Positions 1 to 31,104 of a stretch of 64,000 bases of DNA are shown piece after piece. Origin of the DNA: Blasia pusilla. Taxonomy: Eukaryota. Where the stretch lies: positions 32,240,001 through 32,304,000 of the forward strand of contig CM114271.1 in assembly GCA_050084515.1 (NCBI GenBank), given 5' to 3'. Under the pieces are notes generated by a model. That model was given only the letters and a program-made list of their open reading frames with translations, did no database searches and was not told the origin of the DNA. Both the position numbers and the translations under genes were made by a program. Position 1 is the stretch's first letter. Each line of letters opens with the position of its first letter.

Positions 1-969
1 ATCAAGTCTCGTCAACAAGGTCAAAGACTTTGCGATCGCACTAAAACCCTTGACATACCTGTCGATAGAAGTTCGCCACCCAAGAAATGCTCGGACTCGA
101 CTCTCATCATCGTAGGGCGTGGAATCTGCGCAATAGCCTCTACCTTCGTCTGCCTGAACGCCTAACCCACTCGGGTATATGGTGTGTCCCAAGTACTCAA
201 TCTGCTCTGGAAGAATCTGACTTGCCTGGATGTAACTTCAGTCCATGTAAGCTGCAATCGCGAAACACCTCCTCCAAGTGTCGCTCATGCTCCTCAACCG
301 TGGGAATCAAGATAAGAATATCATCTATGTAACATCGTACAAAATCCAAGCCCGTAATCCTATCCATCACTCTCTGAAACTCCGCAGGAGCGTTCTTCAA
401 CCCAAATGGTAAGAACCGCCACTGATACAAGCAATCTCTCCCGAACCGATCTATCCCCCAGAATGTTGTCTTCTCCCTGTCCTCCAACCTGATAGGAAGC
501 TTATGATAGCCAGCACGGAGATCTAAAGTACTGAAGATCTTTGCATGCCCTACCGCATCAAAGATCTCCTCAGGAGTAGGCATGGCATACCGATCTGACC
601 TCGTTTGTCGGTTGATATGACGGTAATCTCCACACATCCGCCTATCCGTCCAATTGCCATACATATCCTTCTTTTGGGCATGACTGTGGCAGATGCATAC
701 TCCCCATGTGACAACTCCACAAGTCCTGCCTCCAACAAGTCCTGACTCCTGCTCTGAATCAAGGCTCGCTCCATATCAGAATATCTATAGGGTCGATGAA
801 AGATTGGCGTATCACTAGCCAACTCAATCCGTATCTCGGGACCCTTCAGCGTACCCAAGTCTCTCATACTGAAGGCAAAACAACTGACATGCCCTCTCAG
901 AAACCTATGAACTTGCCGTCGCTCTCCTCCTATCAACTTGAGACCTATCACAGGCTCCCAAGTCTCCAT
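1..969 (-). pseudogene. Gypsy reverse transcriptase of copy A (frameshifted)
   Basis: ORFs 550-969 and 197-664: RMCGDYRHIN, FSTLDLRAGYH, LPFGLKNAPAEFQRVMD, CYIDDIL. Near-identical to ORF 48041-48808. Confidence 0.93.
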
Positions 970-1279
970 CGTAACCTCACTCGGAGAGGACGCAACCTCC
1001 GGCTTTGGTTGCTATGTAGCAACCCTAGCCACCTCCGCAACAACCACTCCACTCTGACCTCCTACACCATGGTCCACATCCGAAAAATGAACATGTGCTA
1101 CTCTAGCCGCCTTCGCACTCTCTCGAACGGCGCCCCGGGAAGTCCATGGGTGCCTATCTCTCCTCGTCTCGCCCTTGACCAATGCCTCAGAGACTTCAGA
1201 GGCGGTGGTCCAACTAAATGGGCGTGGCGGCATGGATGACACTCGCATCCGTCTCGCTCCACCCCATACCTAGGTGACT

Positions 1280-2210
1280 ATCCATGTGAGACAGTTGAGG
1301 TCCATCGCTTTGCCCCAACACTGTCTCCATGATGCCTCGGTCATCCTCGGCACCGCCGTGGTACCGTAGTGAACCCCATGGCGCTCGCGCTCATCTTGTA
1401 GGCTCCTCCAATACTCCGGTCACCTCATCCCAAATCATGGCTGGTCCTCCCGGACGAAAGGCATGGGATCTTTGGGAAGCTCACCAACGAGGTAAGGCTG
1501 CCCTCAACTCCCCACCCTATTGGCCGTGGCCAACAGTGGTCTATCATCGCGTGTCACCACCTGAGATCGACGCCCTGAGTCCAAAATAGCATCCACCGTG
1601 AGATGTGATGCTCTTTGGACTCCACTGTAGGCTCGACTCAGTACCTCTAATGGTATCAAGTTCGTCCACCACAGTCGTGGACGATGGGCACGTGACCCAA
1701 CTCTCGCTGTATCTAACAACACAGCCGGTCCCAACCAGGACCTCACCTGATGTACACTCGTCATCACACGTGCACGAGTATCTCCCAACAACGGTACGTT
1801 CTCCAAAATGTACGTTGGAGAACATATCTGACTCTGCTGCAAGTGTCGTACTACTCGCAGCATCTCCCAAAACATTCCTGACCTCGGATCCTGCAATCCA
1901 AATCCTCGGCCAGATGATGAATGACCCTGACATGGCCATCCAGCAATCACCAAATGAATGGTGCCAACTCTATCCAGATCCTGCGCCCCCACCAAAGATA
2001 TGTCGACGGGTAGCGTATGCTGCTATCCCCATACTGCAGATACCGACAACAACTCAGGATACCTCTGGACCAATCTCGGCACGTGATGTAATGATACTCG
2101 CCGCGCGGTCTCATCTCTCTCCACATAAAGGTACTTATGCCCGCGTGCAATACTACAGCCAATCCGGTGCTAATCCCTCCAAAGAGATCTAACACCCTAA
2201 CACCCTCCTC
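1280..2210 (-). pseudogene. DNMT3-like C5 cytosine methyltransferase domain in the pol of copy A (frameshifted)
   Basis: Motif I VRVLDLFGGISTG, motif IV HLVIAGWPCQGHS, motif VI YILENVP and motif VIII AHRPRLWWTN are in ORFs 1947-2483 and 1504-1995. Motif IX/X-like ERAMGFT...GQAMDLNCL lies at about 1280-1395. Confidence 0.9.
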
Positions 2211-2599
2211 TGGGCACTGCCACACAACAGGTGTGGTATCTAGTGGGGTCATCGTCTCCACTCCAAGAGTCCGATCGCCACGTGACTCTCGTTGCTCTGG
2301 GATAAAAACATGACTCCACGCTTGCCTCACGAGGTCGTCGGCACTCCTCTGTAGCTCTCGAGTTGTACCCCATAATGGTGAAGAGGCATCGCTAACATGG
2401 GAAGAGACACCCGCCATGGCCTGTCTCTCCGTGGGACTATCCGCTACTGGGACATCCTCCGCATGTGCGTTCCCCTCCAACAACTCTCTGGCCGGCTAAC
2501 ACTACTCGTGAAAGCCGCCAACGTGGTCAGACTCGCCTCGTGATCGACCATCTTGTCCCATAATCGCACGGTAATCGACTCATCCGACCGTCACCGACC

Positions 2600-4894
2600 G
2601 CCATCCTGGCCGATAAGCAACGGTCTCCTCCTAGAAGTCAAGGATGAATCTAGGGGATATAACATCTTTGTACTCCCCACCAACACATCATCGACTCGGT
2701 GGTGTCGTAATCGCACGTGTCGCGCACCATAGCATTATCCGTCGCGATGCTCTGGCTGGACTCTCACAACAATCTCTGCCGAGTCATATATCGAGTGGGT
2801 GATACGCCCCAATCGAGGTCTCAGATCGGAAGGGACAAGGCTCAATGTCGGCCTTCCGTAACCCCAACGCTAAACACGCCGCCTTCCCTAACATCAAGGG
2901 TTGCGCTCCCGAATCAAGTAGGACGGCCGGCTGGTGGTATATCTTGTCCCCGTCGGATTAACCAAGCGAAATACTCATTTCGGTTATCCAAAGAACACTA
3001 CTCAGTGTCACCATGCCGCTCTATGGCGGTCGAGTGGCATATCTACCAACTCGCCGCCGCCGATGCCATGACTCGTGGGGAACGTCCCAAGCACCGGCTT
3101 TGAGGGCAAGTCCACCACCTCCTCAACTACCTCTGAACAAGAAGCGGTCATCTCTCCATGCTCACACAACGTATGCCAACCGGAACACCTCAACTGGTCC
3201 AACTCCCCAACGCCGCCAACTCTAAGGCGGAAAATAGCGAGTCGACTCACTCTAGTGGCCACCTCCAACACTATAGTCGATACACCGACTCACTCGAACC
3301 GGTATAGGAGTTGTCACTCCAACTCCTCGTGACGTCGCGAGGTGCCACGATCTCAGAGGCACCGCTGGTCGTCTAGGCACCATTGATGGTGTGTAGTGCC
3401 TCCGACAATGTGAACGATCGTGGAACCCTGGCCGCCGCCCATCGGTCCCCTCGGTGGGTCAATCTCAACTCCACCTCTCGATGGCTCGGTGCCTCTCGCG
3501 ACACCGAGTCACCACTGCATTTGCCTCAACTTGGGCCGCACTACACATGAATCCCATATTGGAGAGATCCTCACCGGGTCGGGGTAAGAGGTACAGGAGT
3601 CACACTAGCCGCTCGCACTCCGTGCCTTCCTAAGGCGCATCATCGTCATGGCGAGCAATCCTCTGCTCCAAGCGATCGATGCGTGAGAGAAGTGTCGGCT
3701 CTGGTGCTCTGCTCCATCTCCTCCGGGTGGTGGTGGTCCTCTACCACCACGCCCCGGAAGAACTCCCAAACCTCCTCCAGGACGACCGCCCCCAGGCCCT
3801 CGGCCTACCTCTGGACGTGCCCCTCGGCGAAGGTCAAAACATCTATCCCTAGTGTGACCATATCTGTGGCAATGATCACACTGGTGCTCTGGTGGGGCCA
3901 TCCTCTGTGGCTCTGCGCAATCGGAGGTCTTTGGTGGTCCTCTCCCATCTTTGTGGGCTCTCTCGCCTATGGGCCCCTCCACACGTCCAACAAGACCACA
4001 CCGGTCCCTGCTGGGCAACATATGTAGGTGCGGGTCGTTGCCTCATAGGCTCACGGTACCCGCCCTGCTCTCTAGGCACACTGGCCCGCTCCCGTGGTAC
4101 TGGTGCTTGCTGTGGCACCGGTGGGGTCACCGCCGCTTGTGGACCCGTCGACTCTCGAGAAAATCCAGCGGTCACTACCTGCTCCTCACTCATGTTGAGC
4201 TCAATACGCTCAGACAACTCAAAGACCACCTTCAATGTGGGCTTCGTTGTGTGAATCATCACCGCATCTCGGACTCTCCTCCGTAGTTCTCGGTCCAGAA
4301 CCCCGTACCAATACTGGACTGACTACGCCTCAGTCACTCGAAACGTCGCAATGATCAGCCTCCTCATGCGTGTGAATGCCTCTCTCAGACTCTCACCCGA
4401 TCGTCGCTGAAAATCCTGTAGACTCTTCAGCTTGTCGGTGCGTACTCCCTTGTAGCTCTTCCCCAACTGTCGGAAGAACTCCACTGTGGGGCTGAAGCTG
4501 GGTGGACCTCTACCACCAGAGGTCTCTGCCACATCGCCTGTGTCATTGTCCTCCTCTCCATCTAGTCTCCGGGCTGATGGTGTGGGTCTCTCTCCTCTCA
4601 CAATCCCATCATATGCCTTGCGACCACTAGTGGACACATACCCTAGAGCCCAATACATCCTCCAGGCATCGATCTCTACTGAATATAGTGATCGAAACTC
4701 CATGTAGTCATCCATCGGAGGACCCTCCAAGTGCTGGAACAACCCCTTCCATGCCATGAAAGGGTTGAACCGTGTCGGGGTCCGTATCTCTGGAAGTCAC
4801 ACCATGTGTCGAACTCCTGGATGAAATCATCTAAGTCGATGGTGCCCACTTGCACCGAGAAACGACGCATGCCCCGATGGCCCATGTCGTCCAT
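2600..4894 (-). pseudogene. gag (two zinc knuckles) and aspartic protease region of copy A (frameshifted)
   Basis: DLDDFIQEFDTWC gag start, then CWTCGGAH and CDHCHRYGHTRDRC knuckles and a Gly/Arg-rich tract. A protease-like C-terminal half (DVLVG..LYPL.F.LDF) lies near 2620-2690. The catalytic DTG is not cleanly readable. Confidence 0.75.
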
Positions 4895-5857
4895 CTCTCG
4901 CCAAGTACTCTCTGTCTCTCGTCGGTGATCTCGTCACGGACCAGTGTCCGATGATGACGATCCGATCCACGGATGGGGCCGCCGGTAGCTCCTCACTAGT
5001 AACCCCTCGATATCTCACTCCACTCCGTGTCACACCACTACTACTGCTCGCACTACCCCGTTCTTCCGAACCCTGGAAGAACGCCGTGATGACAAACCCT
5101 GTCTCACCCGCTCAAGCACTCGGACTCATCGAGTCTCCCACACGCCTCACTAGCTCACCTATGCGAACATCAATCCCGTGATGACATACCCGGCCTCACG
5201 ACGCTCAACACTCGGGCTCACCATGAGCCTCCCAACTGACTCACCTAACCTAGCGACACACTCTCGGGTCATACACGCGACCCCTACTCGGCAACCGCCG
5301 TATATCCACCAACATGCTACACATGAAAAGAATCTACACTCGTCACCATCACTGCACCCATCTAGCACCAACTACTACCCGATACCCAAAGACTCTCAAT
5401 CACACCACGACAAGTGCGGGAAAAGGGACTCGAATGGGTAACCTGATCACGCCCTCCAACCTGCTGCACCGTCAATATGCACTCCTCCACATAATATGAC
5501 AATCTCCGCCACATAACACTCCCCTCGACCAACACGTCGATCCTCCCGTCAACAGATGCAGACAACCCGTCAGCATCATGCACACTGCCCCTCCAGCGTA
5601 AACTCTCGCAACGCCCTATGCGCGCCTCAAAAACAACATGTCACGCCCGCTGTCCAACTTGTCGATCACTCAGCACGTCGACATCCTCCCTGCCCTCATG
5701 TTGCCCATGCACACCGCGTTCGCCGGACCAACCTCGTCCGTCCTACCACGTTCGCTACGACTGTCCGACCGCCGTCGGTGCTACCACGTCGGAAAGGGGG
5801 AGAAATTTAGGACCGCGGCCCTATGCGGCCCCTTGGGCCCTAAATACGGGGGGGGGC

Positions 5858-6712
5858 TGTCACGCGCCCTGCCGTCCGCCGTCCGCGCCCTGCCGTCCAC
5901 CGTCTGCGCCCTGCCCTAAATTTCGCGACCTAACTCTAGCCGCCTTTACATGACAGCCCCCCGGCGGCTACAAGACCCAACTTGCCCGTTCCTTCTCTTT
6001 CGACGCCTTCACTTGCGTACACCCGACGCCCCACCACACGCTACACTCGGCTGCTGTCCCCCAACAATTTGCACCAGCAAAATCTGAGAAAAACAGATAG
6101 CGCTTCCGCCCACGGCCTTCCGAACAGAAAAATGACACAAAATGACACACACACGTCTCCAGGGGCTCCCCAACCGAGGCAACTCGCTTGCCTACCTGCA
6201 AACAACGAATTCCCACCAGCCCCCTGACATCTTTCTCATGTAAAAATAAAGAGTAGTAAAAACGGCACACCCGGCCTAAAACTCCACTCCTCAATCTACA
6301 TCGGCATATCGAGCCTCGTCCACCTTGTGCTATCAAGGAATCCGGACGCTAGCACTCTAGTCCTAACTCACACACATACAAGGGAGGTGCTCCAACGGCC
6401 CAACATGAGAAAGATGGCTTAAGAAAGCCATCTTCCTCTCTTATATAGGTTGGGAAGAGCCAAAAGGCTCTTCTCCTAAAAATAGCCCTTCCCTTGGTAA
6501 CTTTGTGTGCACAGGTTGAGGCGAGTTACTGGTCAACAAGTCACCCGGTAGAAAAGACCTCAACATGAAAGTAAATCGAAACGCGTTCGACACAATGGAC
6601 CTATCCTCAACCTCATCCGACACTGTGGGACAAAGTTACACTGAAGATAGTCCGTTGGCTCCTACGCCCTATCCACGATAGATCTCGGCCTATCGGCTAC
6701 TCATATGTGACA
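5858..6712 (-). repeat. LTR of copy A
   Basis: Bounded by TGTCAC (5858) and GTGACA (6712). Homologous to 30298-31104 and 58446-58813. Contains TATATAA. The inner boundary is inferred from the terminal inverted repeat only. Confidence 0.8.
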
Positions 6713-8086
6713 ACACCTTCAACAAGTCCAACGTCTGGCTCGACTCCGTCCTTTCCCCTGAGTTTGGGCCCACCGGCCCCGCGGAAGGAGTCGCCTTTGG
6801 AACGTCCTCACGACTGGCGTTCAGCTCTTCGGGAGTCTCCGTCTCCACCATAGCTTCACGATCCGGCATTGGTTCCTCTCTTGGTTCACGTCGCTTGATT
6901 CGGCGCTTCTTGGGTTTTTCTCCCTCGATCGCCATTTCCAAGCCAACTCACTCAGATCTCCTCCTCGTTTCTTGCGTTCCTCCTGGAGCGTCCGAGCCTA
7001 ACCGCTACCTTGAAATTTCCCAAGCGTCCGGCTGATCTCACGACCCCAAGTTCTCGCTCACCAAGGATTAGCTCTGATACCACTTGTCGCGCCCCTACTC
7101 TCCTTGAACGTCAATCTTTAGTGTTGCGGAAGCGTGCGTTCAGTAGGTCACGAACTCATCGCCGATCTGCACCCAAACACGCACTCTCGTTAGTCGGGTT
7201 TGGCCAACCGGCGTTCCAACCCACCAAGTCCTCAACTCGGCGTCTCATCAAGCTCAACCTTCCCGAGTTCCTAGCTTCCAACACATGGCAAGTCCTTCAA
7301 GACTTGGAATAGACTTCCTGGTTAGTCCAAGGATTTGAAACGGCACTTGCGCGCCTAGCGATCCCAACTGTTCAACGGTCCTCGGGTGAGTTCCGAACCG
7401 AGACCCAAGTAATTGAGTCGCGGGGTGGAATCCAAGAGGGATGTCTAAAATCGCCTCCCTGGACTTGGTGCAGATTTTCCAACCCAACCCCCAAACTCGC
7501 GTTCCGTTCCATGCCCTTGAGCCGCCCCGCGGCGCCCAAAGTGGGGTTTGGGTTCCAAGCACTCTCGGAGACCTTCCCCCTTACTAGTACTTCCGGGGTT
7601 CTCCAATAACCCCTCCCCTTTGGGAAAAGAGGTTCAGGCCCTTCATTGTGGCCCTCAACTCGACTCCACTTATAGTTGTTTTCGGGTCGTATCTCTGCCA
7701 CTGCTTATGCGTTTGCAGCAATCTTTGGTGCGTTTGGACCGGCTCTCCATAAGCTTTCCAACGCACCCTTATTTGCTCCAAACGCATCTTGGCGCTAAAA
7801 GTTATGGCCATAAATACAGTCGGAAGCTCTCAAACGCTAGTGGCGTTCCAAATCCGGATCTTCCTTTTGGCAACCCACTTCCTAGACTCGACTTCTTTCA
7901 AGTCTCATTCTGCGTTTGGTCCAGGTTTTTGAGTCGCAACCATCACATCTGAAACGCGACTTCTCGCTCGCGTCTCATCTCTTGTCTCCTCTTTGAGACA
8001 ACTCCAACGCGCAAACCATCTTAGCGTGAGCCCGCTAATGTTCCGATGTTCCGCTTGGCACTTGTTTGGTCATGAGGGTCGCGACA
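6713..8086 (-). mobile_element. 5' end of a chromovirus-family gypsy (copy D: 5' LTR 7085-8086, PBS, start of gag), interrupted by copy A
   Basis: LTR TGTCGCG...CGCGACA matches 35426-36420. Region 6713-7070 matches 46149-46500 of element C. Confidence 0.9.
7071..7082 (-). promoter_or_regulatory. Primer-binding site (tRNA-iMet) of copy D
   Basis: TGGTATCAGAGC on the minus strand, 2 nt inside the LTR end. Confidence 0.9.
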
Positions 8087-9439
8087 CTGATGGTGCTAGC
8101 AGAGATATAATGTTCCTAAGATTTGTCACCAATTTATGCTTCTACATATTTACTTGTCTTTGCACTTGTTAGAAATTCGAGGTCCTTGCAAACTTAGGTT
8201 GGAACTGTTAAAAGGAATTCTAATTTGTGGATTGAACTCAGAGATGGATATATATGAGGTATGTAGGACATTGCAGCTCTCTAGACTATGGTCAACAAGA
8301 TGTCACAATATGACAAACTAGATTACATATCTTCTCGTCTAACTATTCAAAGGAGTAGCATGAAGGTGGTTTGGATTGTTGTCATGGTTGCAGGGTTTTG
8401 GTGTGCATCGTGTTTTGAACCTAGATCCTTATAGATGTTCCTTTGGCATAAAATATGTGGAGGATTTATCAAACTTGATTGAGTCTTCTACTCGTGGATG
8501 AGTTGCAAAAAAATATAGGTGCATTCAAGGGCCTTTTAATTGGCTAGACACATGGAAGTGAACAACAAATATTCAATCTACTTTTCCATTTACATATAAT
8601 GGTTTTCATTGTGAAGGTCATATGCTCTTGAGGTGATATTTGATTTGTTATTGTAGTTTATTGTATGTCATCCATAAAATTTGATATGAGGCCATCAACT
8701 TGATTAGCAATATGAACTATCCATTGCATTCCATAAGATCCCTAAACTAGTTTTTACCATTGCCTTCTTCAGATTTTTAATCTATTGAAGTGATATTAAT
8801 ATAATTATCATCATGCAGGGAGAATGCTTTTGGTTGCTTGCTGGAGTGAATGCAGTATCTTCTTGTATTTTGCAGTTATTGCTAGTTTCCTTTCAATTCG
8901 TGATCTCAGCAAGTTGTTGTATAGCCCACTAAATTTCAATGAAGGTGGTGGCGGGGTGTTGGGGAGCGATAAAGCCAGTTCCTAAGGTAGTACTTTATGA
9001 ATATTGTGTGTTGTGTGAGTTGCAGACTGAGAATTTTCAATGAGTGGAGAATTGGGCTAGGTTTTAAAGTGTGCCTCTAATCCAACTTATGACTTATTGG
9101 TAAATCCAGAACGTGACTGACATAGCTCAAAAGAACAAAACTCTTGTAGGGACTCCTCTAACACATATATGTTTCTTTGGTTCCTTCTAATGTTGCAATG
9201 GCATTGAAAGATCCATAAGAATGGAAAATCGTTGAATATCTAAGTTTGCACACTAATGTACTATCTAGTGGAACACACAAATGATACCACTTACAGATAA
9301 GTGCAATATAATTGAAATGACTGGTTTTCACACTGTGATGCTCTTGATGTATCACATTAGTTACGATGCATTTGTCTCAATATGCTAGCGCAAATATTGT
9401 CTTTAGATGTACATAGAGGCAATGCATGTTTGTTGAAGA

Positions 9440-9780
9440 AGACATTCTACTGTCTTAAACAGGCTCAACGAGCCTGGTATGAAAAAATGGATTACTACCT
9501 TATGAAATAGAGATTTTTTCGAGCTCATATACATTTTAGTGTTTATTGTGAAAATGATACATTGTTTACTAAATTTCTATAGATGACCTTCTTTTGTTAG
9601 GATAAAAGTAAGAAGGCAGTCCAACAAGCAAAGGACAATCTTTGCTCAAAATTTGTTGTGACTATCATAGGTCTAGTAAAGTTCATCTTTGGAGCCAAAC
9701 TTGAGAGGAACAGAGAAGAAGGATTTACGTCCTTCAAATACCAGCAAATTTACATTCTTGGTCTCTTGCACCTTGACTAA
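9440..9780 (+). pseudogene. Heavily decayed Ty1/copia RT fragment
   Basis: Translates as LKQAQRAWYEKMDYYL and later IDDLL, the copia RT signatures LKQAPRAW and YVDD. Has stops and frameshifts. Confidence 0.6.
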
Positions 9781-10615
9781 AGTGAGTGTGAGTGCTCACA
9801 ATGCAAGGACCCATTCACAATTGAGGAATCAACAATAAGAAGCGACAAGTTCTTCCCCAAATACCTCGCCATAGTGAGTATTTGGTTTATGTCATGGTGT
9901 GTCTCTTATGTATTAATGTTATCTTACACACTCATCAAGAGAACCACGTGGACTCTCCAAAATGATGCAAGTCTATCTATTTCATCGAATACTTGAATGT
10001 CGTCCTTCGGGATTGGAACCCATATTGATTGATAGAGTTGGTGGGATGTTATGAGTACATGGACAAGCCTCCTATCAAAAGTAGCAATGTGTTTGCTTTG
10101 GTAAACGGGTTTGGTCCATAGGGTGTTGGATCATTGTGCCTTAATATGATTACTTCATAATTAAAGGAAGACTTCTTAGTTGTGAACCCCATTTAACTCA
10201 CTTGTTCTTCTATTCATTGATTTTCTTGTGAAAAGTTCATTATGACTTGGAGACGATTTAATTAGTTGGATGCAAGGACTCTTGTCGATCACTTCTTGGT
10301 GACAAACCAATGCACGATGCAGGATACATTTCCTCGGCTTACACATATGGCTACCATTCCCAAATTGGAGGTGTCTAAAATAATGGACTACAAGGGTGAA
10401 AAATCTCCATTTTTGAATTTTTTTTTACTTGAGTCCAATAGTATTCAAAAATGGGATTGAGCATTGCTATTAAGCGCTATATTCATGGATATAGCTAGTC
10501 CATGGATTATGAGATAATTATGCAATCGCTTCATTATAGTTGATTATGGATTTAAAAAAATTATACATGAGGCTTTGTCCCACTCTAAATATGAATCATT
10601 GGCTAAAATTGTACT

Positions 10616-13543
10616 ATGGTAAATGGTAAATAGATCAAGCCCGTGGGACCCAAAGGGTCAAAAGGCTGAAAAACACATTACAAGTCATTCATTGACTGAC
10701 CCTGAAAAAGATCCTTAAGACCTTCTCCTAGCTACAGCCTAGAGCACTTGAGCGATGAATGATGACGTCCCTAATATAACAACCTAAATCATAAGGCACT
10801 AGTTGTAGTAAAGAATAGAAATTCTCCACATCTATTTTATGAGCTAGTCTTATTTCTCCATACCTTGGACATGTAACAAACACATGCTCTTCATCCTCAA
10901 TATTTTCTCCGTCACATAACCTACAAATTCGTTCACTTCTATCAATTTTAAACCATCGTCCTTCCTCAATTCCTAGCCTATGAGACCCAGTTCTATGACG
11001 TGCGATAATATGTCGTAAGAACGTGGAGATCCCCGCAAGTAGGTATCCTTGTTCACAATATACAAGCATAGGATTAACATGAAGTTGATAAAACTCCATT
11101 TTGGTGCCCGTGACCTTTGCTCCAAATGATGTTGAGAGATTGCTTCTGTAGATGCTCACGGAGGGCCATCGGTTTCAAGTCCCAATCGCGTTCTGCCACA
11201 TTCCACTTTGAAGACCAAGTCACCACATCCGCCATCCACCCTATGGAATGTGTGGCTCGCAAAGCTTGATGAGGGAGGCGAGAAACATCAAGAGATCTCA
11301 CCCTTGCGATGTAATGGCGATGGTCAAGTAAAGAGCCAAACTTCTAGAGGAAGAAAAACTGTTTCGCAAGAAGAATAGCATACGGAGTTTGGTTTCTTAC
11401 ACCCAATTCTTCTTGTAGAAAGATCTTTTGCACTCTCTTTCCACGCGCTCCCAACTTTGTCTTCTTACAACTAGGGCCCCAAACTTGGGTCCCATATAAG
11501 ACCACCAAGCAACACTAAGCTCCTAAATAAGAATTTCCTAAGACTCCAAGACACAAGATGAGCTCTTCTACACCGGTTTAAAAATGAATATAGAGCTTTG
11601 TAACGACTTCTACTCTCTTTTGCACGCAAAGTGCCCAACTATAGTCATGAGAGAAATCGATGCATAGATATTTGTAACTCTTCACTTTGTAAAAGAACGA
11701 GAGCCTTTGTAAAAGAACGAGAACCTTTGTAAAAGAACGAGAACTTGGATCTACTACCCACTATAATGACTTTAGACTTCTCCATATTAATCTCCATCTG
11801 ATTCTGGGTACAAAACCTTGCCAAAGTGTCGAGGTGCTTTTGTAAACTAATGCCATCATGTGCTAGTAATATGATATCATCTGCATACAATAGAGCTTTG
11901 ATGACAAAGTCCCCAAGCTTGACCCCTTCACTATCACATTCCTCCAACCACTTTTCGATATCATCTATGAAAACTCCAAAAAGTGTAGGGGACAGAGGGC
12001 AACCTTGAATGCCTCCAATGGTGCTCAAGATCTCTTGATTTTGTGAACCTTTGATCTTGGCCCGAACGGAATGGTATAACGTGGCCACGGCTGCTAGGAG
12101 ATTTTGTGGAACTCCAATGGCTTGCAGCCTTTCCCATAAGAGCTTGCGAGGTACAATATCAAAAGCTTTCTTGAAATCGATGAAGCCGCAAAACAAAGCT
12201 TTTCCATTGCCCTTAGATTTCTCCCATAAAACACGCAAGGCCAAGATATGGTCGATGGTGTTGTATGTTGGACGAAAACCAGCTTGGACCCGTGCTCTCT
12301 TTTGGAAAGACTCGTCCATGTGCTCAACCGACTCCACCAATTTCCCAAACAACTTGGCAAAAATACTACCCACCATGATAGTGCGATAGTTTGTTACCAA
12401 GTCCTTCCTTCCTGATTTGTGAATAGGGACAATCTCCGTAGCGACCAGGTTGAAGGAAAACCATAGATAGCAAAGATCACCCAATAATTTGGTGAGGATC
12501 GGTCCAATACAATCTCCTCCCCACTTGAAAAGTTCAATAGAAAGACCATCCAAATCCTCACATTTACCATTCGCCAATCTTCTTAGGTGAGTCATCACCT
12601 CTCCTCCGGAGAATAAGCCGGGTATTCCTTCACAATGTGGCATAGGCGTAGCATCGGGAAGAAATAGAGCTTTTCGCAAAAGATATCAAAGACTTGGGAT
12701 CAAGAATAGGTTTTGAGACCGTACTACTAACCGTCGCCAAAATGATTTGGGGTCCTCATGCAGCTCCTTGTCAAGGACTCTTGTTTTCGCAAGAAAGCTC
12801 GTTTCTTAGATTTCACCAAGTATTTGTAAAGGCTCGTCATAATAAGCCGACTTGGGATATCCAAAGATTTATCCGCTCGTGCCCTTGCTTGCTTGCATTT
12901 AGAGTCAAACCACCCATTACAAGCAAGGCTCTAGCACTTCTATCCCGGTGGCGCAAAAAAGAACTTAGATGCACTATTTTTGAGCAATTAGTTAGTTGCA
13001 TACTTGCCGTGTTTGGATTAGGGCTCCATACAATGCGAGTCAAGTGTTCTTGTAAATGTAGCATATAAAGATCTTTTTTACAGGATCTAAGCGAAACTTG
13101 GGAGAAGCTAAAATAGATTGACATGTCGAGAGAGGAATTTCCTTTGTGTGAGAGAGTAAACAAGAGAGGTGCATGATCCGATTCAGTGAGGTTCTAGAAT
13201 ATCAAATGTAGAGATAAAAGAGCTATCGTGGTGAGGACAAAAGATAATCGATGGTGCTAAGCGCCAGAGAGGAGAAACACGTATTGGAGTGAGAGTTGGG
13301 AAAATGAGAGGTTCCATTAAGAACTTTCAAATTACAAGTGGCTCCAAAGGTTAAAAATACTCTGTCAAAGGATTTGTAGAAAGATCTGAAGAGATTCTAG
13401 ACCATAAACCATCCTCATATTCTTCGAGAAGAGGAGAAATCAAGGAATCACTGAATTGGGTAAATTGAGCAGTACGTGTGCGAGCATTGAAATCTCCAAC
13501 TAGAAAGACTTCACCTTTGCTTTGATATTTGAGAACATCCCCA
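10616..13543 (-). mobile_element. 5'-truncated RTE-X-like LINE, copy 1
   Basis: Endonuclease remnant GDFNART; RT QAGFR, QGCPLSP, LLYADD; C-terminal CRLC...H...C finger; 3' TTTACCA-type tail. Near-identical to 41690-44641. Confidence 0.92.
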
Positions 13544-15782: not shown

Positions 15783-18700
15783 ATGCAGCATCCTTGGTTC
15801 TGTGATAGAGTGTGGTCGCTTTTGCTTCTGGTGCTGCTACACGGGCCTGTGTCTATTCGAGCTAATAACGAAGGTGCGCTCTTTTCTAGACTTTCCTCAC
15901 CTTTTCAGCCGTCACTGGCATGCATCTGAGTCCAGCTAGCTTTGAATGTGATGCTTTTTAAGCGGTAGTCGACTGGTTTGCTCATGATCAGTTTCAAGTG
16001 CGCGTACTTCCCTTTCAGCTGATAGTGGGGGTGTATGGGAAGTGCTTTTATTCGTGTCTGCCTACTGCTTCCTAGAGAACTGTCTCTTCAGACGCTGTTT
16101 TTTCCAGGCACTTACGTGTCGACCATGAGTTTCTCATCGGAACCCCTGCTTTTTCAATGCTGAAGCCTGAAGGGTGGAACGCATCCGACAGGTCTTTTCC
16201 TACCAAGCAGGCAACTTGTAATCTTAGCAGCTAATTGGTTACATTCCAGAGCCATTTTTTAAAACTCAAATGCTTTGGGATTCAAAGAGCGGGGTAGAAA
16301 GTGGGAGTTCGAAAATGTCGGTCGAGTTGATGAAACCTTCTATTGTCACTGGATGAGTAGTTACAGCGAGGGTATCATCAATCTTCGTATGATCTGGCTT
16401 TGCAATACGCAAGAGGATCTCGAGTGCGCGTTTGGTTTTAGCGGGCAACTTGCGTTTGCTGGAAAGGTCACCAGTGGAGAGTTTAGGATTGGCAGCTTTC
16501 GACGTAGTGCCGCGGACCAGCCGGGCAGCGTAAGAGTTGTTGGCTGGTCAACAATTCCAAAATGGGATCCGTGAAGGTAACCTGGCCTTGTTCGTACAGG
16601 CCAGCAAATGATGATAACAGTTCTTGGAGCCATCAACGATGGGCTTGCCTCCTCTTGACGTTTCTTCGTTAAAACTATGCCGACGTCAGATAGCCGTCGG
16701 GGATCGAAGTGGGACTGGATGAATACTGATCACGAGTGATCCACATTTAGTGGTGGGTAGTGTACTGACCAGACGGGATTGTTCGAAGTGGGTTTAAATG
16801 GCGCAAGAGGTCTAAGGTCTTTTAGAAATGACGAGGAGGCTTTGTCTCTAAGTAGATGGTATGGTGTTTTGTCGTCCAAGGTATATTGGCGAGCCGGATG
16901 TTCGAAGACCCCTTCGCGATTCCTCTTTTGTTAGGAGACGAGGCGATCATTTGCTTTTCTTTAGTCGCTGAAAGGTACCTCAAGGTTGGTGTCTAGGTCT
17001 TCTGGATCGCTCAAACCTAGTGGCAGGATTGTCCCAGTACGGTTTCTTACCCACGGATCTCTAATCGTTTTCTGGTAGCGTAGGCAACGGTCCAGGCTCA
17101 GTGTGCTTATCGTCATTTTCATTGCTCAAAGCAGGATCGTCACCAATTTTGAAACATGTGTAGGCCGGGAAGATCATACCCACCTCTCGTTCATATTGAA
17201 GTCCTTCACTCGTAAGCCAGGAATTGAAGACCTCATCGTAGAAATTAGAACTCTGCAGGAAGGCTGTTCCCACCATGATAAGTAGCCTAATCACTTTCAT
17301 ATGGATTCACTCACGCGTGTTCTTCAAGGGGGAGCTGATGAGAAAACTATGAAACCTATACCTCAAAATCGGTGGTATATGATGTTCTGAAATACTGTGA
17401 AGAAGGTTGTTAATCTGGTCTAACCTACCGTGAAGCCATTGGCTAGTTTCAATTACCCAGGCCATGATGTTGTCTAAGCTTGTAGTGGGGTTAACGTCTT
17501 GTTTGCCCTTGGTAAGGTGGAGGCCGGGAAGGGGACAATCAGCTCCTCGTCAAAGTGAAGCCTTTTAAAAGCACAGAAACGAGGATTCAAATCCTCAATC
17601 CCTTAAAGATCTTAGAAATCTACAGAAAGTTTGTTCCCAAGACATTAGGAAACCGAGCTATTTTTACATGAATTCATCCAAAGGTGTTCTTAAGGGCGAG
17701 ATTATGTTAGCTTCTGTCATTGGTACATTGTTCAACTCCATACTCTCTCCAGTGAGTGAACTTTAATGATTTATGATCTGCAGCAAGTTCACCAGACTAT
17801 CACGTTAGTACCTGCTAACGTATCTATTTTGAATGTATTCAGGCGATGCCCTTCATGCTCTAAGACAAGCTTTAGAGGATCCCAGTCAGGTCCTGCAAAG
17901 TTGGGATCCGTCTCTTGTCAATCCATGCACATGGTTTCATGTCACATGCAACGGAGAGAATTTGGTTGTCCGGGTGTAAGTATTTCCAGAACACTTCAGG
18001 TTGATATAATTAACAGTTCACTTGATCCCCTATTTGGGTTAATCCTAGAGCTTCATCAGCAACTCTTGTGCGTTTTCGTTAGTTTTGTGTCCTTTCTTTT
18101 CATGAACATGTCCATATAAAGTGGCCAGGCCAAACTAATTGGAATGGGAATTTTTTTTCCATGCCTTGCAGGGATTTAGGAAATGCTTTGCTTTCAGGAC
18201 AATTAGTCCCTCAGCTCGGCCAACTTAGGGAACTCCAGTATCTGTAAGTGTAATCCACTTAACTTTTGCAATGGTGTCATAACTTTGACAGAGAAAGGTT
18301 TTCTGTATCTTCGTTTTTTAATCTTCACACAGTATGAAAGCTGTTTTTGTAGTCAGCCATGTAACTTTGACAAATTGATGCTCAGACTTGATAGGTACAT
18401 AGCCTATGGAGAAGAGACAACGTCTTCCTTTAATGATATCTCAGACACGTGTAATTGCAGGGAACTCTACAGCAATAATATATCTGGTAACATTCCCAAG
18501 GAGCTGGGTAATTTAACCAACCTTGTCAGTCTAGATCTGTATCAAAACAAGTTCACGGGTCCGATTCCAGAGGAGCTTGGCAAGCTGCAGATGCTGAGAT
18601 TTCTGTAAGAACACCGGTCCTTGTCTTACATCACCATTGTTATTTTCACTTGAGCTTGGAACTAGTACATCTTAGTTTGGGAGAAGTGGTATGGATTGGC

Positions 18701-21700
18701 TTGACATAACTTACTTTCTCCAGCATAAGTTTTAGAATATTCATGAGGAATCAGACTATGGCATTATGTAGGGCACAACTTAGGACAGTCATTGATTTAT
18801 CCACTGCAAGGCCTGCCCTCATCTTTGGGATTCTTGGCTTATTGGGTGTCTCTTGGTTTCTTCGCGTCTCTGTGCAAGGCGGCTGAACAACAACTCTTTG
18901 GAAAGTGTAATTCCTATGTCACTTACACAAATAAGTGGTCTACAGGTTCTGTAAGTCAGTTCACTCTCGCCACACACTGTTTTAGCTGTTCTAATTGTGG
19001 CTCACAAGGTGGCAATGGGCAGATTCATCATGGCCATGTATGTTTAACTAGATGATGAAGTACTGTGTGGTTCAGGCATGGGTCAGATGTTACAATTCTT
19101 GCAGCAGTTTTGAATTATACTCGTTTTTCACACGTCCATTTTCTTAGTTCCTCCTTGGGTTTATTTTGGTACAGCGATCTTTCTAACAATAACCTGACTG
19201 GTGAAGTTCCAACAAATGGTTCCTTCTCTCTGTTCACTCCTATCAGGTATTGTTGTGCTAAAGTTCTTTTCCTTAATTAGTCCACTGATTGTGTCCCTTC
19301 GGCTGTGAAACAAATGTTAGTTGAAGTCTGATGCTGAAATAGAAATAGAATTGGGAAGACAGCCATACATGAATGCAAGCCTGGTTCTCACAGGCTGAGA
19401 TGTGAATGGAATGCAGAGGAGGCTTTGTCTTGCTTTGGACCAGTGTCAAATCCAGAAATCAAGTTTTTTCTCTTGCTAGTCTGAGCACTAAACAGTTTTT
19501 AGTCAACCAAAGTATATATGGAATGCCATGTGTCACAAATAAACATGTCAGCTAGGATTGAAGTCAATACCAAATTAACTGGGGTAGACTAGAAGTTTGG
19601 TAGATTCGGAGATTGTCAGGAAAGTAATCTATATCTTTCGGCCTTGTGACTATTTACTGAAGGATGGTCAATTTCTCTGTGTACAGTTTCAATGGAAATC
19701 CTGATCTCTGTGGACCAGCTGTTGGAAAGGCATGTGTTGGTGGACCTCCTTTAACTCCGCCTCCTCCTGTTCAGCCACCTCCTACACAACCCAGTCCTAG
19801 TAAGTCACAATAAGGTTCTTTTGATTGACTTCACTAGCCCAAGAATATCGTTATTTTACTTGACTGTGATGAATTATGTCCTAAACATCTCTATTTAGTA
19901 TCAAACTCGTAAAAGTCTTGCTCTGAGAATTTTTGGTGTTACCTCTCTACTCGCAGATCCAACCCCTTCATCACAAACTGGTGCCATCGCTGGTGGGGTT
20001 GCAGCTGGTGCTGCTCTTCTGTTTGCTGCTCCAGCCATTGGCTTTGCATGGTGGAGGCGCCGCAGGCCTCAGGAAGCCTTTTTTGATGTCCCAGGTAAGG
20101 AAAATGGAGTTCGCTCTAAATGGTTGAGCCTCTTTGATACTTTGTGGTGCAGGATTTGAGTTTGTCTAACATCTGTAATAACCCTCATGTTTAAATATTG
20201 ACCAACAGCTGAAGAAGATCCAGAAGTGCATTTGGGACAGCTCAAGAGATTCTCATTAAGGGAATTGCAAGTGGCCACTGATAACTTCAACAACAAGAAT
20301 ATCCTTGGGAGGGGTGGGTTTGGTAAGGTGTACAAGGGCCGGCTGGCAGATGGGTCCTTGGTAGCTGTGAAGCGCCTCAAGGAGGAGCGCAGTCCAGGTG
20401 GTGAACTTCAGTTTCAGACAGAGGTGGAGATGATCAGTATGGCTGTGCATCGGAATCTGCTTCGCTTGCGCGGCTTCTGTATGACTCCAACAGAACGCTT
20501 GCTTGTATATCCGTATATGCCAAATGGCAGCGTTGCCTCCCGCCTGAGAGGTGTGCTCCATAGTTCATTTTTTTGTGTTATATTTTATTGCAAATTATAG
20601 CCATCTATGAAATTTTATTGTAAATTCCTTTGGTTTAACCTTCTTCATCAGATGATGTTTTGAACCCAATGCTGGTGAGCTTTGTATTTATAAATAAATG
20701 GATAACTGCTCTCCTTGTGTTGATGTGATACTGATTCATCACATGGTGTTTAGATGGTCGAGAATTATATTGTTTTATTGCTTACAATTTGGTTAAGTGT
20801 GGACTCAGTACTGTTGTTCTATGTTGTACAGAGAGGAGGGATGAAGATGCACCACTGGACTGGCCAACTCGAAAGCGAATTTCGTTAGGATCAGCTCGGG
20901 GTTTGTCTTATCTACATGATCATTGTGATCCAAAAATTATTCATCGTGATGTGAAGGCTGCCAATATTTTACTGGATGAGGAATTTGAAGCAGTAGTTGG
21001 TGACTTTGGCCTGGCGAAGCTCATGGACTACAAGGACACTCATGTGACAACTGCAGTCCGTGGGACAATTGGTCATATTGCTCCCGAGTACTTGTCCACT
21101 GGCAAGTCTTCAGAGAAGACTGATGTTTTTGGTTTTGGAATCATGCTTTTGGAGTTGATTACAGGGCAGCGTGCATTTGACTTGGCTCGGCTTGCCAACG
21201 ATGATGATGTGATGCTTCTTGACTGGGTGAGGCCCCACTCCGGGAATCTTAAGATTATTGACCATTCTGCAGTATGTAGGATGTTGTCCTGATTTTTTTC
21301 CCTAGTTACTTCTAATCTGGTTTGTTTTTAGCTAGTTTTGGTTCACTGGTTTTGGGCGAAGCAAAGAACTGTTAGGAGTAGAGGATTTACTGATGTTTTC
21401 CATATGTTTTGGCTCTCAGGTAAAAGGTTTGCTCCGGGAAAGGAAAGTAGAATTTTTGGTTGATCCCGATTTGCAAAAGTACGACGCCATAGAAGTGGAG
21501 CAGCTTATTCAAGTAGCTTTGTTATGTACTCAAAGCTCACCAATGGACCGACCAAAGATGGCAGAAGTGGTGCGCATGCTCTCAGGTGATGGCCTGGCAG
21601 AACGCTGGGAAGAATGGCAGAAGGTGGAGGTGGTGCGGAGTCAAGAAGTTGAACTTGTGCCTCATAGAACATCAGAATGGATTGTGGACTCTACAGACAA

Positions 21701-21734
21701 CCTTCATGCAGTTGAGCTGTCAGGCCCTAGATAG
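15783..21734 (+). CDS. SERK: SERK/BAK1-family LRR receptor-like kinase (LRR-II), 628 aa. Exons 15783-15873, 17843-17975, 18172-18243, 18461-18604, 18879-18950, 19175-19246, 19687-19799, 19957-20094, 20209-20550, 20832-21226, 21420-21734
   Basis: All introns are GT-AG and the exons join in frame (1887 nt) with SERK-typical sizes 133/72/144/72/72/342/395. Contains a signal peptide, [17 protein letters not shown], LRRs, a Pro-rich exon, [21 protein letters not shown], kinase [14 protein letters not shown], and C-terminal ELSGPR. Confidence 0.97.
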
Positions 21735-24700: not shown

Positions 24701-25635
24701 GGAACTAACTACTTTGGGTAAGTTCATATAAAGATCAAATTTGACTTTTTCTTTGGGAAGTAATCCTTGAACCCCTACAACAAATCAAAAGCCAAAAAGG
24801 TAACCTACGAGCACAATAATATTAATGTGGAGAGAGGATGGAGAGGAAGGGTATTCCCAAAGAGAGAGAACTTTGGAACTCATTCTCTCTTTGTTGAACC
24901 TCTTGACTTGAGTAGATGAAACTATGGTCCTCCTTGCTTTATGAGTAACCCAAACCTTCCATTAGGAGATTGGGTTTGGTTTGACATAAGAGCGATTTTA
25001 TGCACCATTGAAGTGATTTTGATTTACAAGGAAAGAATAAAGGATTGAGAGCTTTACAATGCAAGAGCTTGATGGTTGCTTGCTAGTTTTGCAGATTGAG
25101 GATTGTGCTTCCCATTCACAAGAGCAAGAGTTGCCTAGTTGTATGCATTTTGTGGGAATTTTTTGTTCGAAAGGAAGGGGTGTAAAGCATTACCTGATTT
25201 TGAGTTGAAGTTAAGTATAGGTACTATGTCTACCATGCTAGGGCTCTTGGAAGCACGTTCGAATTTTCCATTTTCTTGTGAGTTATGTTCAAAAACTTGT
25301 GTGGAAGGAACCGATGCGAAAGTGTATTTGAATTTTTTGTAGGAGTTTTGGCCATGGGCAATGCGACAGTCGTTGTCCATTTCAAGTGGAAGTTTGAATG
25401 AGGGAGCTGATTTCATGCATGATGCTTTAGATGAGGAAGTCAATCACTATATTAGAAGAAATGATTCATGGTTTTGATGCTTGAGTGCAATGTCCATCTG
25501 TGGAGGGTTGCCATAGCCATTGTGTGATAGAGAAATTTTGAATTTTGGGGATAACTCATTAGGAGGAATGTAGAAAAGTAGAAAGCTTGTTATTTTTAGT
25601 GTGTACTCACGACCTTACAGGTACAATGATATGGA

Positions 25636-27010
25636 AAGTAGGAGCTCTGATTCAGAGTAGGAGCCAGGACTTGGTTGGAGCAAGACTAGTGGAGATGTCA
25701 CATGTAGAGTTTGCATTTGCCACAATCATGCCCGCCAAGAAGGATGTGGATGGTAAATGGACGGACAGGCGGATGTGTGGAGATTACCGACCTATCAATC
25801 GGAAAACAAAGTCTCATAGATATGCCATGCCCACCCTTGAGGAGATCTTTGATGTTATTGGGCATGCAAAGATCTTTAGTTTGTTGGATCTTCGAGCCAG
25901 ATACCATCAACTGCTTGTTAGATTGGAGAACAGGTAGTAAACGGAATTTTGGGGAATCGATCCTCATGAGAAGGATGGCTTGTACTAGTGGAGTTTCTTA
26001 CCATTTGGGTTAAAGAACGCTCCGACTGAGCCTTAGAGTGTCATGGATAGGATCTTGGTGGGTCAGGATTTTGGTAGGTGCTATATTGATGACATCGTAG
26101 TCTTTCGCACCACGGTTGAGGAGTATGAGCGACATCTGGAGAAGGTGTGTCGACGATTGGATTCATATGGGCTGAAGCTACATCCAGGCAAGTGCAAGTT
26201 CTACGACCAAATTGAGTACTTGGGTCATACAATATGCCCACGTGGCCTTGGTGTGCAGCAGACAAAGGTAGAGGCTATTTCATGCATTCCACGCCTTATA
26301 GATGTGAGTCGAGTTTGTACATTCATGGGATTGGCGAACTTCTATTGACAATACGTCAAGGGTTTTAGTTCGATTGCGAAGCCGCTAACCTTGCTGACCA
26401 AGGTGGATCCCGAGTGGCATTGGGAGGATGAGCAAGAGAGAGCATTTTAGTTGCTCAAGGACAGGTTGACGTCTGATCCTATATTGAAGAGACAGATCAG
26501 GGGATGTCCTTTCCAATTGCATATAGATTAGAGCATGTTGGGGCTTTGAGCGTTGCTTGCCTAACATGATGATGAGGGTAGAGAATTTATGGTGGCTTAC
26601 ACTAGTCGCTCGAACAACGCTGCGGAGATAAAGTATAGCTAGTATGAGGATGAGTGCTTGGTTGCAGTATGGGTTGTTGCGTATCTTAGGTGTTACTTAT
26701 TCGGAAATCTCCTTACCATCGTCATTGATCATCAGCCACTGAAGTGGTTGATGGAGTCTAGAAAGCTTACACGGAAGCTTGCGAGATGGGCTCTCTTGTT
26801 GCAAGAGTATGACATCCAGGTAGTACATAGACCTAGGACGCTCAACCAGGATGCAGATAGTTTGAGCCATAAACCATGCCCGAGTCAGAGAGATGCCACT
26901 AGAGCTCAGTGGCATGGATGCCACTAGAGCTCAGTGGCATGGAGAGAGTGATGAGGAGTTGGTGCCAAGATGGAACGCGTCACTCTATTTAGGCTTATTG
27001 GCTATGGAGA
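25636..27010 (+). pseudogene. Older RT-RNaseH fragment of the MTase-gypsy family
   Basis: RMCGDYRPIN, CYIDDI, DHQPLKWL and LARWALLLQEY are colinear with 48240-49590. Many stop codons. Confidence 0.9.
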
Positions 27011-30200: not shown

Positions 30201-30297
30201 GAGTCCATGGATGGAAAGAGAACGTATTGAGTCTGTTGACACTAGTCAAAGCTCGAGTCAGGTGTAAGAGGCATCGACCTCTGAACAACAACTTCGT
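27232..30297 (+). mobile_element. Ty1/copia element (5' LTR about 27232-27541, PBS 27542-27553, gag-protease-integrase), cut off by insertion of copy B
   Basis: CA then TGGTATCAGAGC; gag KLNKQNYNVWKFRM; CNYCGIKGH knuckle; protease WYIDSGA; WHKRIGH; integrase LIHSDV, FIDDFS, LRCDGGGEY, TPQQNGVA. The RT half is not found in the window. Confidence 0.92.
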
Positions 30298-31104
30298 TGT
30301 CACATTTGAGTAGCCGATAGGGTGAGATCTATCGTGGATAGGGCGTAGGAGCCAGCGGACTATCTTGAGTGTAACTTTGTCCCACAGTGTCGGATGAGGT
30401 TGAGGATAGGAGGTCCATTGTGTCAAGAACGTTGTTTCTGACAACTTTCATGTTGAGGTCTTTTACATCCGGGTGTCTTGTTGACCATGTTACCCGCCCC
30501 TGGTAACATGTGCGCGCAAGTTACCAAGGGGAGGGCTATTTTTAGGGAAAGAGCCTTTTGACTCTTCCCAACCCTATATAAGAGAGGAAGATGGCTTTCC
30601 TAAGCCATCTTTCTCATGTTGGGCCGTTGGAGCACCTCCCTTGTATGTGTGTGAGATAGGACTAGGGTGCTAGCATCCAGATTCCTTGATAGCACAGGGT
30701 GGACGAGGCTCGATATGCCGATGTAGATTGAGGAGTGGAGTTTTAGGCCGGGTGTGCCATTTTTACTACTCTTTATTTTTACATGAGAAAGATGTCAAGG
30801 GGCTGGTGGGAATTTGTTGTTTGTAAGTAGGCAAGCGAGTTGCCTTGGTCGGGAGCCCATGGAGACGTTGGTTGGTATCGTATTTGTCACTTTTTATGTT
30901 TGGAAGGCCATGGGCGGAAGCGCTGTTTGTTTTTCTCAGATTTTGCTGGTACGGATTGACGCGGGACAGCAGCCGAGTGTAGTGTGCGGTAGAGCGTCGG
31001 GTGTAGGTTTGTGAGGGTGTCAAGAGAGAGAAGAAAAGCAGCTTGAGGGCTTGCAGCCGCTAGGGGGTTATCAAGTAAAGGAGGCTAGGGTTAGGGCGTG
31101 GACA
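30298..31104 (+). repeat. 5' LTR of copy B
   Basis: Starts TGTCAC exactly where homology to the copy A LTR begins and ends GTGGACA. TATATAA at about 30575. Confidence 0.8.

Follow-up and report, generated by a model that had tools for sequence, protein, structure and literature searches.

A Ty3/Gypsy retrotransposon family of the land plant Blasia pusilla with a DNMT3-type cytosine methyltransferase domain between protease and reverse transcriptase

Cytosine methylation is the main means by which plants silence transposons, and a transposon with a de novo methyltransferase of its own therefore inverts the usual roles. Whether a land plant harbours such an element is the question raised by a 64,000-nucleotide stretch of Blasia pusilla DNA (GenBank assembly GCA_050084515.1, contig CM114271.1, positions 32,240,001 to 32,304,000 of the forward strand; the whole stretch is called the window here, and positions are counted from its first letter). 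An original prediction, made from the letters alone, had read in it a gypsy retrotransposon family with a DNMT3-like methyltransferase, not permuted in the manner of the plant DRM enzymes, that occupied the same pol position in two independent copies and so transposed with the element; a match to PF00145 and the ratio of nonsynonymous to synonymous change (dN/dS) between copies were proposed as checks. Comparison of the window with itself showed that the two copies, A and B, belong to one Ty3/Gypsy long terminal repeat (LTR) retrotransposon. In A, in B and in intact relatives the methyltransferase (DNMT) lies between the aspartic protease (PR) and the reverse transcriptase (RT), as had been predicted, and the coordinates given for it (1280-2210 in A, 34571-35425 plus 47650-47730 in B) were correct. 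The gypsy identity was borne out by the LTR, the gag zinc knuckles, PR, RT, RNase H (RH) and integrase (INT).

The copies are colinear, with 87% nucleotide identity between A 1366-6714 and B 35413-30296 and 91% between A 1-1362 and B 49012-47647. Their parts, located with Pfam profiles and by tblastn with the related proteins P0012 and P0009 (both from Marchantia) and P0061, were as follows:

1-6714 (-): copy A, cut by the window start
6350-6714 (-): 5' LTR of copy A, about 365-375 bp, TATA-like CTATATAAG, from a three-way alignment with 30296-30672 of copy B and 58446-58813
3504-4895 (-): degraded gag of copy A (P0012 residues 2-445; 10 stops in the matched frame)
2136-2957 (-): degraded aspartic protease region and linker of copy A (P0012 628-902, P0009 137-403; 6 stops)
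1266-2240 (-): DNMT3-like C5 cytosine methyltransferase of copy A, motifs I to X (PF00145; end points approximate, computed from the alignment to P0012 872-1196)
1-975 (-): reverse transcriptase of copy A, cut by the window start (P0009 691-975, three frame pieces, no stops)
30296-35425 plus 47647-~51100 (+): copy B, interrupted by a nested LTR element of 12.2 kb
30296-30672 (+): 5' LTR of copy B, from the same three-way alignment
32185-33636 (+): degraded gag of copy B (P0012 1-481; 13 stops)
33744-34540 (+): degraded protease region and linker of copy B (P0012 599-728 and 669 onward)
34547-35425 (+): methyltransferase of copy B, part 1, motifs I to IX (P0061 and P0012; frame changes and stops)
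35426-47646 (no strand assigned): nested LTR retrotransposon inside the methyltransferase of copy B, 12,221 bp, foreign to the element
47647-47742 (+): methyltransferase of copy B, part 2, motif X (LGQAMDLN; tblastn and motif positions)
48035-49780 (+): reverse transcriptase and RNase H of copy B (PF00078 E 2.1e-27, PF17917 E 6.9e-34; P0009 691-1185, 7 stops)
49755-50686 (+): integrase of copy B, H2C2 zinc finger and rve core (PF17921 E 5.8e-16, PF00665 E 1.9e-15; P0061 1870-2177)
50963-51055 (+): PHD finger of copy B, 3' of the integrase (PF00628 E 2.8e-5, 24.5 bits against a cut-off of 24)
58446-58813 (-): third LTR copy, isolated (a solo LTR or a remnant), 86-90% identical to the LTRs of A and B

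A unit of about 370 bp thus stands 5' of both copies and alone at 58446-58813, where the homology ends at both borders of the unit, and from this the family appears to carry ordinary LTRs. Downstream of copy B no 3' LTR was found within the window and copy A is cut before its 3' end, so with 5' LTRs and an isolated LTR visible the target-site duplication of the element itself was not seen. The nested insertion in copy B is bordered by a 5-bp duplication (ACAAC at 35421-35425 and 47647-47651) and copy A runs uninterrupted across the same site. Strings of the form CX2CX4HX4C were present in the translated gag open reading frames (ORFs) of A and B, with two CCHC-type zinc knuckles in A; the gag zinc knuckle domain PF00098 matched the relative P0061, and the protease motif DSGA was located at residue 638 of P0012. 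The Pol order PR-RT-RNase H-INT was seen in B, and in A as far as the window reaches, with the methyltransferase inserted between PR and RT, and a C-terminal PHD finger was also found in many relatives. Read from the sequence, the full Gag-Pol order of the family is gag(CCHC)-PR-DNMT-RT-RNaseH-INT-PHD. Both window copies are pseudogenes with many stops and frame changes: in the DNMT part, A carries 4-5 in-frame stops and a single frameshift near 2136, and B at least two frame changes, at least two stops and the nested insertion, with 2-5 stops around PR and DNMT. The leader of about 1.5 kb between LTR and gag (A 4895-6350; B 30672-32185) has no recognised ORF. The ratio of observed to expected CpG was 0.72-0.87 in the elements and 0.34-0.58 in the surrounding DNA, a richness that is neutral on self-methylation, neither for nor against it.

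The class of the inserted domain was assigned from its motifs, from profile scores and from a predicted fold. The piece of copy A at 1504-2022 (-) matched PF00145 (E 8.2e-10, 39 bits against a cut-off of 22), and the motifs of a C5 cytosine methyltransferase were found at these positions:

2163-2192 (-) in A and 34586-34615 (+) in B: motif I, LDLFGGISTG
2113-2133 (-) in A and 34655-34675 (+) in B: motif II, YLYVERD
1927-1944 (-) in A: motif IV, AGWPCQ; ARWPCQ in B at 34838-34855 (+)
in A: motif VI, ENV; the aligned stretch of B is no longer ENV
1660-1689 (-) in A: motif VIII, AHRPRLWWTN, in this copy only
35391-35408 (+) in B: motif IX, EHAMGF
47692-47706 (+) in B: motif X, LGQAM; GKAMD in A at 1300-1314 (-)

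The motif order claimed in the original prediction is real, but the set of strings that it had assigned to two independent copies is a composite of A and B, both of them broken: motifs I and II stand as quoted in both copies, IV, VI and VIII in A only and X in B only, and the quoted ERAMGF is in neither. A profile (A1) built from an alignment of 25 domain sequences was then compared with all PDB chains. The best score was to DNMT3A (90 bits, E 1.2e-24), followed by DNMT3C (82) and DNMT3B (80), with lower scores for tobacco DRM (56), Arabidopsis DRM2 (44), M.HhaI (40) and DNMT2 (25), and no DNMT1 or chromomethylase chain was among the matches up to E 1. The match to DRM was confined to its rearranged part (query 75-220 against chain 215-350), and against the DNMT3A chain 2qrv_A motifs I, IV, VI, VIII, IX and X aligned in order. 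With motif I, PC, ENV, AHRxRxxWxN, ER..G(F/Y) and LG in the order of DNMT3A, the domain is read as not permuted, unlike DRM. A single broken piece was too weak a query to separate DNMT3A (E 7e-3) from M.HhaI (E 6e-4) in the same chains. For P0008, an intact relative of 368 aa that is 68% identical to the A piece, AlphaFold gave a model with a mean pLDDT of 89.9, and all the top matches listed for this model by Foldseek were catalytic domains of DNMT3A, DNMT3B and DNMT3C (E ~1e-19, target-normalised TM 0.80-0.85). An ESM Atlas look-up returned generic C5-methylase clusters only.

Across all 25 aligned sequences, which are 33-68% identical to the window piece, three residues did not vary, namely the catalytic Cys, the ENV Glu and the motif VIII Trp, and most motif residues on the S-adenosylmethionine (AdoMet) side were retained. 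Neither PWWP, ADD nor DUF3444 was found by Pfam in P0012 and P0061; this is still compatible with DNMT3, since algal and protist DNMT3s have also been reported without companion domains (in the portion of PMC12344493 available). By profile ranking, motif order and predicted fold, the inserted domain is a C5 cytosine methyltransferase of DNMT3 type whose motifs are not permuted, in agreement with the original prediction. A bacterial or viral origin of the domain was considered and rejected, with M.HhaI at less than half the score of DNMT3A.

Relatives of the domain were found in several green plants. A word-indexed protein search with the A piece gave 45 matches, 22 of them with an organism name, namely Marchantia polymorpha (16), Calypogeia fissa (3) and Sphagnum (3), at 59-74% identity. 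Further names, from profile searches and cluster look-ups, were M. paleacea and the zygnematophyte Closterium, and the chlorophyte names were Chlamydomonas eustigma, Haematococcus lacustris, Cymbomonas tetramitiformis and Scenedesmus. The relatives in Marchantia, Calypogeia, Sphagnum and Closterium are annotated without a family name. An exhaustive HMMER search returned 2127 representatives at E <=1e-3 and 305 at E <=1e-10, many of them polyproteins of 1500-3200 aa. Among these relatives P0061 joins CCHC-PR-DNMT-RT-RH-INT in one product of 2188 aa, and several Marchantia models are long and uninterrupted, among them P0012 (gag-PR-DNMT, 1278 aa) and P0009 (PR-DNMT-RT-RH, 1190 aa); in P0061, P0012 and P0009 the methyltransferase is in frame within Pol, and in A and B it is colinear though broken. 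Its motifs were conserved, at 33-70% identity, in sequences from Closterium, liverworts, Sphagnum and chlorophytes.

When 378 proteins were scored for domain order they fell into two classes, PR-DNMT-RT-RH-INT(-PHD) and RT-RH-DNMT-INT-PHD, the latter including the Cymbomonas proteins P0268 and P0269. A tree of the DNMT domain was made from 98 rows out of 187 with near-full coverage (the two window pieces, every named row, every unnamed PR-DNMT row, and random samples of 30 from the RT-RH-DNMT rows and 20 from the unclassified ones), reduced to 94 when four long-branch rows were dropped. The two classes were split on one branch of it (UFBoot 100, SH-aLRT 98). The window copies paired together (100/94) inside a 15-row clade with Marchantia and Calypogeia (100/99), and Closterium, of the PR-DNMT class, stood outside the bryophyte clade; in a second tree that included partial sequences, the window copies were a separate branch of the bryophyte clade. 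By these trees the family is placed in a PR-DNMT-RT Gypsy lineage of liverworts, Sphagnum and Closterium with a sister group in chlorophytes, in which the methyltransferase stands between RNase H and integrase. In the second tree the Sphagnum rows (P0301, P0031, P0043) nested inside the liverwort rows of Marchantia and Calypogeia, which suggests several old lineages or transfer between hosts. In two profile searches of a large protein collection no host DNMT3 or DRM and no Klebsormidium, Physcomitrium or vascular-plant name was found, the matches being retroelement relatives only; since candidates were prefiltered by shared words and transposon genes are often left unannotated, the missing names are no evidence of absence. 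P0292 and P0293 were weak profile matches (E ~2e-10), and P0292, which has a Copia-type RT (PF07727), is possibly a Copia-borne DNMT of the kind mentioned in the available portion of PMC12344493.

Copy number was estimated by mapping a Hi-C DNA run labelled with the same species on window positions 1-12000 at >=90% likeness and summing depth by region. Depth was ~5.5 over a unique flank (8401-10400), 950-1870 over the DNMT part (1201-2400), 1150-1290 over the protease region, 1220-2600 over gag, 2470-3200 over RT and ~2700-2840 over the LTR, the last being ~500x the unique flank. The DNMT part was thus present at roughly 170-340x the unique depth, similar to PR and gag, which suggests a few hundred copies retaining the DNMT part and indicates, as the original prediction held, that the domain travels with the family. 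One bin of the leader (5601-6000) had a depth of only ~155 against 1500-2800 on both sides, so that this stretch would be present in few copies. With codons of A and B paired through the nucleotide alignment, dN/dS was 0.38 over the DNMT domain (bootstrap 0.23-0.62), 0.43 over RT-RH, 0.72 over gag and 0.66 over the PR-linker region, and the value for the domain points to much of the A-B divergence having arisen under purifying selection on it. Pairing of codons through a distant reference protein was rejected, as mispaired codons inflated dS to 0.4-0.8.

Three raw RNA-seq runs, also labelled with this species, were mapped, with 6-12% of each run used. RNA reads on the element had nearly all their first mates on the + strand (for example, 20.9 against 0.38 in bin 1-400), and RNA depth over 1601-2400, within the DNMT part, was 2.7-5. 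With the usual stranded protocol, first mates on the + strand come from RNA of - polarity, the sense direction of copy A, and the strand bias argues against carry-over of DNA. Most RNA reads were 90-95% like A (415/632 in run X19), so the transcripts stem from other copies. In each run 18-25 reads overhang A at 1921 and 1955 into unlike sequence, and the overhangs, translated by eye, gave residues typical of the family on either side of motif IV, from which it follows that a sibling subfamily with the motif IV stretch open is expressed.

Taken as a whole, we consider it likely that this is a high-copy Ty3/Gypsy family with a Pol-borne DNMT3-type enzyme that methylates the cDNA or provirus of the element. 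Translated as part of Pol, the enzyme would be produced and packaged along with RT and integrase and would then methylate cytosines of the new cDNA or of the fresh provirus. Two things suggest this last step, namely the position of the domain in Pol and the de novo CG methylation obtained in yeast with the domains of SymbioDIRS-Dnmt3 from Symbiodinium (PMC5890265, in the text available), whose authors proposed self-cDNA methylation for that DIRS-borne DNMT3. Such methylation might let the element limit itself, imitate DNA methylated by the host or evade a different silencing pathway, and the PHD finger 3' of the integrase, at the position of the chromoviral chromodomain, probably steers integration by reading histone tails.

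Several points weigh against this reading. No active enzyme is evident from the two window copies, and the placement of the domain inside the DNMT3 clade comes from a similarity ranking and not from a rooted tree with the other DNMT classes. The same holds for membership in the clade of KnitGypsy-Dnmt3, the Gypsy element of the charophyte alga Klebsormidium nitens described by de Mendoza et al. (2018), and that element is described with DIRS-like repeats where ordinary direct LTR units were found here, so that the two may differ in structure; it is also the only domain of this kind to have been assayed, and it gave no methylation in yeast, a result its authors called inconclusive because human DNMT3B failed as well (both from the available text of PMC5890265). 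The Hi-C copy number is rough, 142,297 of the 183,376 mapped reads fitting only in part, and the dN/dS of two dead copies blends selection before insertion with neutral decay, with dS open to inflation by CpG decay. The sense direction of the transcripts presumes a library with the first mate antisense to the RNA.

Other readings of the domain were weighed against the same evidence. It could be mainly a DNA- or chromatin-binding module for targeting, or could act in trans on host DNA, with the PHD finger steering integration. This fits the PHD finger after the integrase in B and in many relatives, at the chromodomain position of chromoviruses (10.64898/2026.05.21.726589, available portion), as well as the inactivity of KnitGypsy-Dnmt3 in yeast, and a few hundred copies make effects in trans on the host methylome conceivable; the unvarying motif IV Cys and ENV Glu, together with the largely retained AdoMet-side residues, would be unexpected in a module for binding only, and we regard this as unlikely. 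Methylation of RNA in the manner of DNMT2, be it the genomic RNA of the element or its tRNA primer, was raised in the available text of PMC5890265 for SymbioLINE-Dnmt (de Mendoza 2018), and the enzyme would indeed be packaged with RNA; with a DNMT2 score of 25 bits against 90 for DNMT3A and a predicted fold nearest to DNA-bound DNMT3 catalytic domains, we think it very improbable.

A neutral passenger, captured once, unused and slowly decaying, would agree with the broken state of both window copies and with the available literature, in which no Gypsy-borne DNMT3 has been shown to be active. Against it stand the dN/dS of the domain, as low as that of RT-RH, the motifs kept from Closterium through liverworts and Sphagnum to chlorophytes, and a read depth like that of PR and gag, and hardly any weight is left to it. 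The juxtaposition might finally be due to chance, with a host DNMT3 fragment lying beside retrotransposons or invaded by them, or with a chimera in the assembly, for which the general frequency of nested transposons in the window is the sole argument. It was rejected as next to impossible, since the same junctions recur in A and B in opposite orientation and with different flanks, the read depth is several hundred-fold and other species have single uninterrupted PR-DNMT-RT products; the lack of PWWP, ADD and DUF3444 by Pfam in P0012 or P0061 also speaks against a host fragment.

The reading of a Pol-borne enzyme that methylates DNA of its own element can be extended further. An old Gypsy-DNMT3 lineage across the Viridiplantae may have come onto land with the bryophytes and still be transcribed there at a few hundred copies per genome, with an enzyme active on its own cDNA and perhaps in trans, as a supply of de novo methylation to bryophyte genomes; we regard this as possible but doubtful. 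Under such a history the positions PR-DNMT-RT of streptophytes and RT-RH-DNMT-INT of chlorophytes would go back either to a relocation in one lineage or to two captures.

Elsewhere in the window the only evident host gene was at 18207-21734 (+), where ORF pieces with leucine-rich repeats (LRR, PF00560) and a protein kinase (PF00069, E 2e-24) are probably exons of a plant-type LRR receptor kinase. A short unique stretch at 8444-8506, with a DNA depth of ~5, had RNA reads whose first mates lie on the - strand and which continue into other sequence on both sides, resembling a spliced exon of a host transcript. The nested element at 35426-47646, in which there is a protease ORF (44632-45519, -), has in turn been invaded by a long interspersed nuclear element (LINE), and DNA like its LTR adjoins the 5' end of copy A at 6711-8088. 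Three LINE-like copies at 10606-13543 (-), 41689-44640 (+) and 58835-62157 (-), 89-96% identical to one another, carry RVT_1, with Exo_endo_phos in the third; their DNA depth was several hundred-fold and RNA reads lay over the first. An RT-RNase H fragment at 25610-26918 (+), in one frame, is 74-76% identical in DNA to the RT of the methyltransferase-bearing family and 58% identical in protein to Marchantia P0009; it is truncated at its 5' side with no DNMT upstream, and is either a related family or an old fragment. A Copia-type fragment at 28561-30027 (+), with Pol_BBD and gag_pre-integrase followed by an integrase-like ORF, stops ~270 bp short of position 30296, where the 5' LTR of copy B begins. 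Tandem repeats at 39901-40463 and 63042-64000 have a period of ~177 bp and are 79-90% alike within and between the arrays.

A land-plant family of this kind is useful for what it makes accessible. The published case, as available in PMC5890265, is one alga with few copies and undemonstrated activity; here there are a few hundred copies, sense transcripts over the DNMT part and close relatives in Marchantia. The benefit of the enzyme to the element and its effect on the host methylome become testable in a model plant. Marchantia is genetically tractable and has published methylomes.

Among known systems the nearest, by its published description, is KnitGypsy-Dnmt3, and the original prediction was right to name that precedent. 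According to the available text of PMC5890265 it has a Dnmt3-related, non-rearranged domain within the Gypsy Pol ORF, a Ka/Ks <0.2, few copies, no introns and its key residues kept. The B. pusilla family shares with it the DNMT3-related domain in Gypsy Pol, purifying selection (0.38 here, between the two dead copies) and a streptophyte host, and we take it to be the same kind of element, likened by description and not by sequence. It differs in having a land plant as host and a few hundred copies. The capture was framed in that text as an event of the K. nitens lineage; its occurrence in Closterium, liverworts and Sphagnum, and that of sister elements in chlorophytes, speaks for a lineage that is older or more widespread, and revises the idea of a capture specific to Klebsormidium. 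In PMC12344493 (2025) and the preprint 10.64898/2026.05.21.726589, as far as their text was available, Gypsy-DNMT3 elements are mentioned only as reported 'in streptophytes', and the available portions of PMC11982613, 10.1101/2021.02.12.428880, 10.1101/363937 and PMC6453930, on Marchantia or Physcomitrium, mention no Gypsy-DNMT family. No description of a land-plant Gypsy-DNMT family was found by full-text searches of the literature, in line with the original prediction, which knew of no characterised one, although the supplements of PMC5890265 and PMC12344493 may list such elements.

The best profile and structural matches to the domain were animal DNMT3A, DNMT3B and DNMT3C (2qrv, 6w89, 6u8p, 8tci). 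The element and the animal enzymes have in common the motif order and FxG.xxG, PC, ENV, AHRxRxxWxN, ER..GF/Y and LG; the element domain is ~20-22% identical to them, has a longer region between motifs VIII and IX, is embedded in a polyprotein and has no PWWP or ADD by Pfam. The host plant enzymes PpDNMT3a/b combine an N-terminal DNMT3-type methyltransferase with a C-terminal DUF3444 (Yaari et al. 2019, PMC6453930, available text). The element domain resembles them as a non-permuted DNMT3-type domain of non-flowering streptophytes, and differs as a part of Pol, not of a cellular gene, with no DUF3444 found. SymbioDIRS-Dnmt3 and EpiLTR are likewise retrotransposons with a cytosine methyltransferase; the DNMT of EpiLTR (Cymbomonas, Euglena) is reported to be the sister of DNMT4 and to occupy the 3' end of pol (10.64898/2026.05.21.726589, available portion). 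Their backbones differ from that of the B. pusilla element, being DIRS in the one and chromovirus-like with an adenine methylase in the other. What is new here is a land-plant family of a published kind of element, with a range in green plants much wider than that published.

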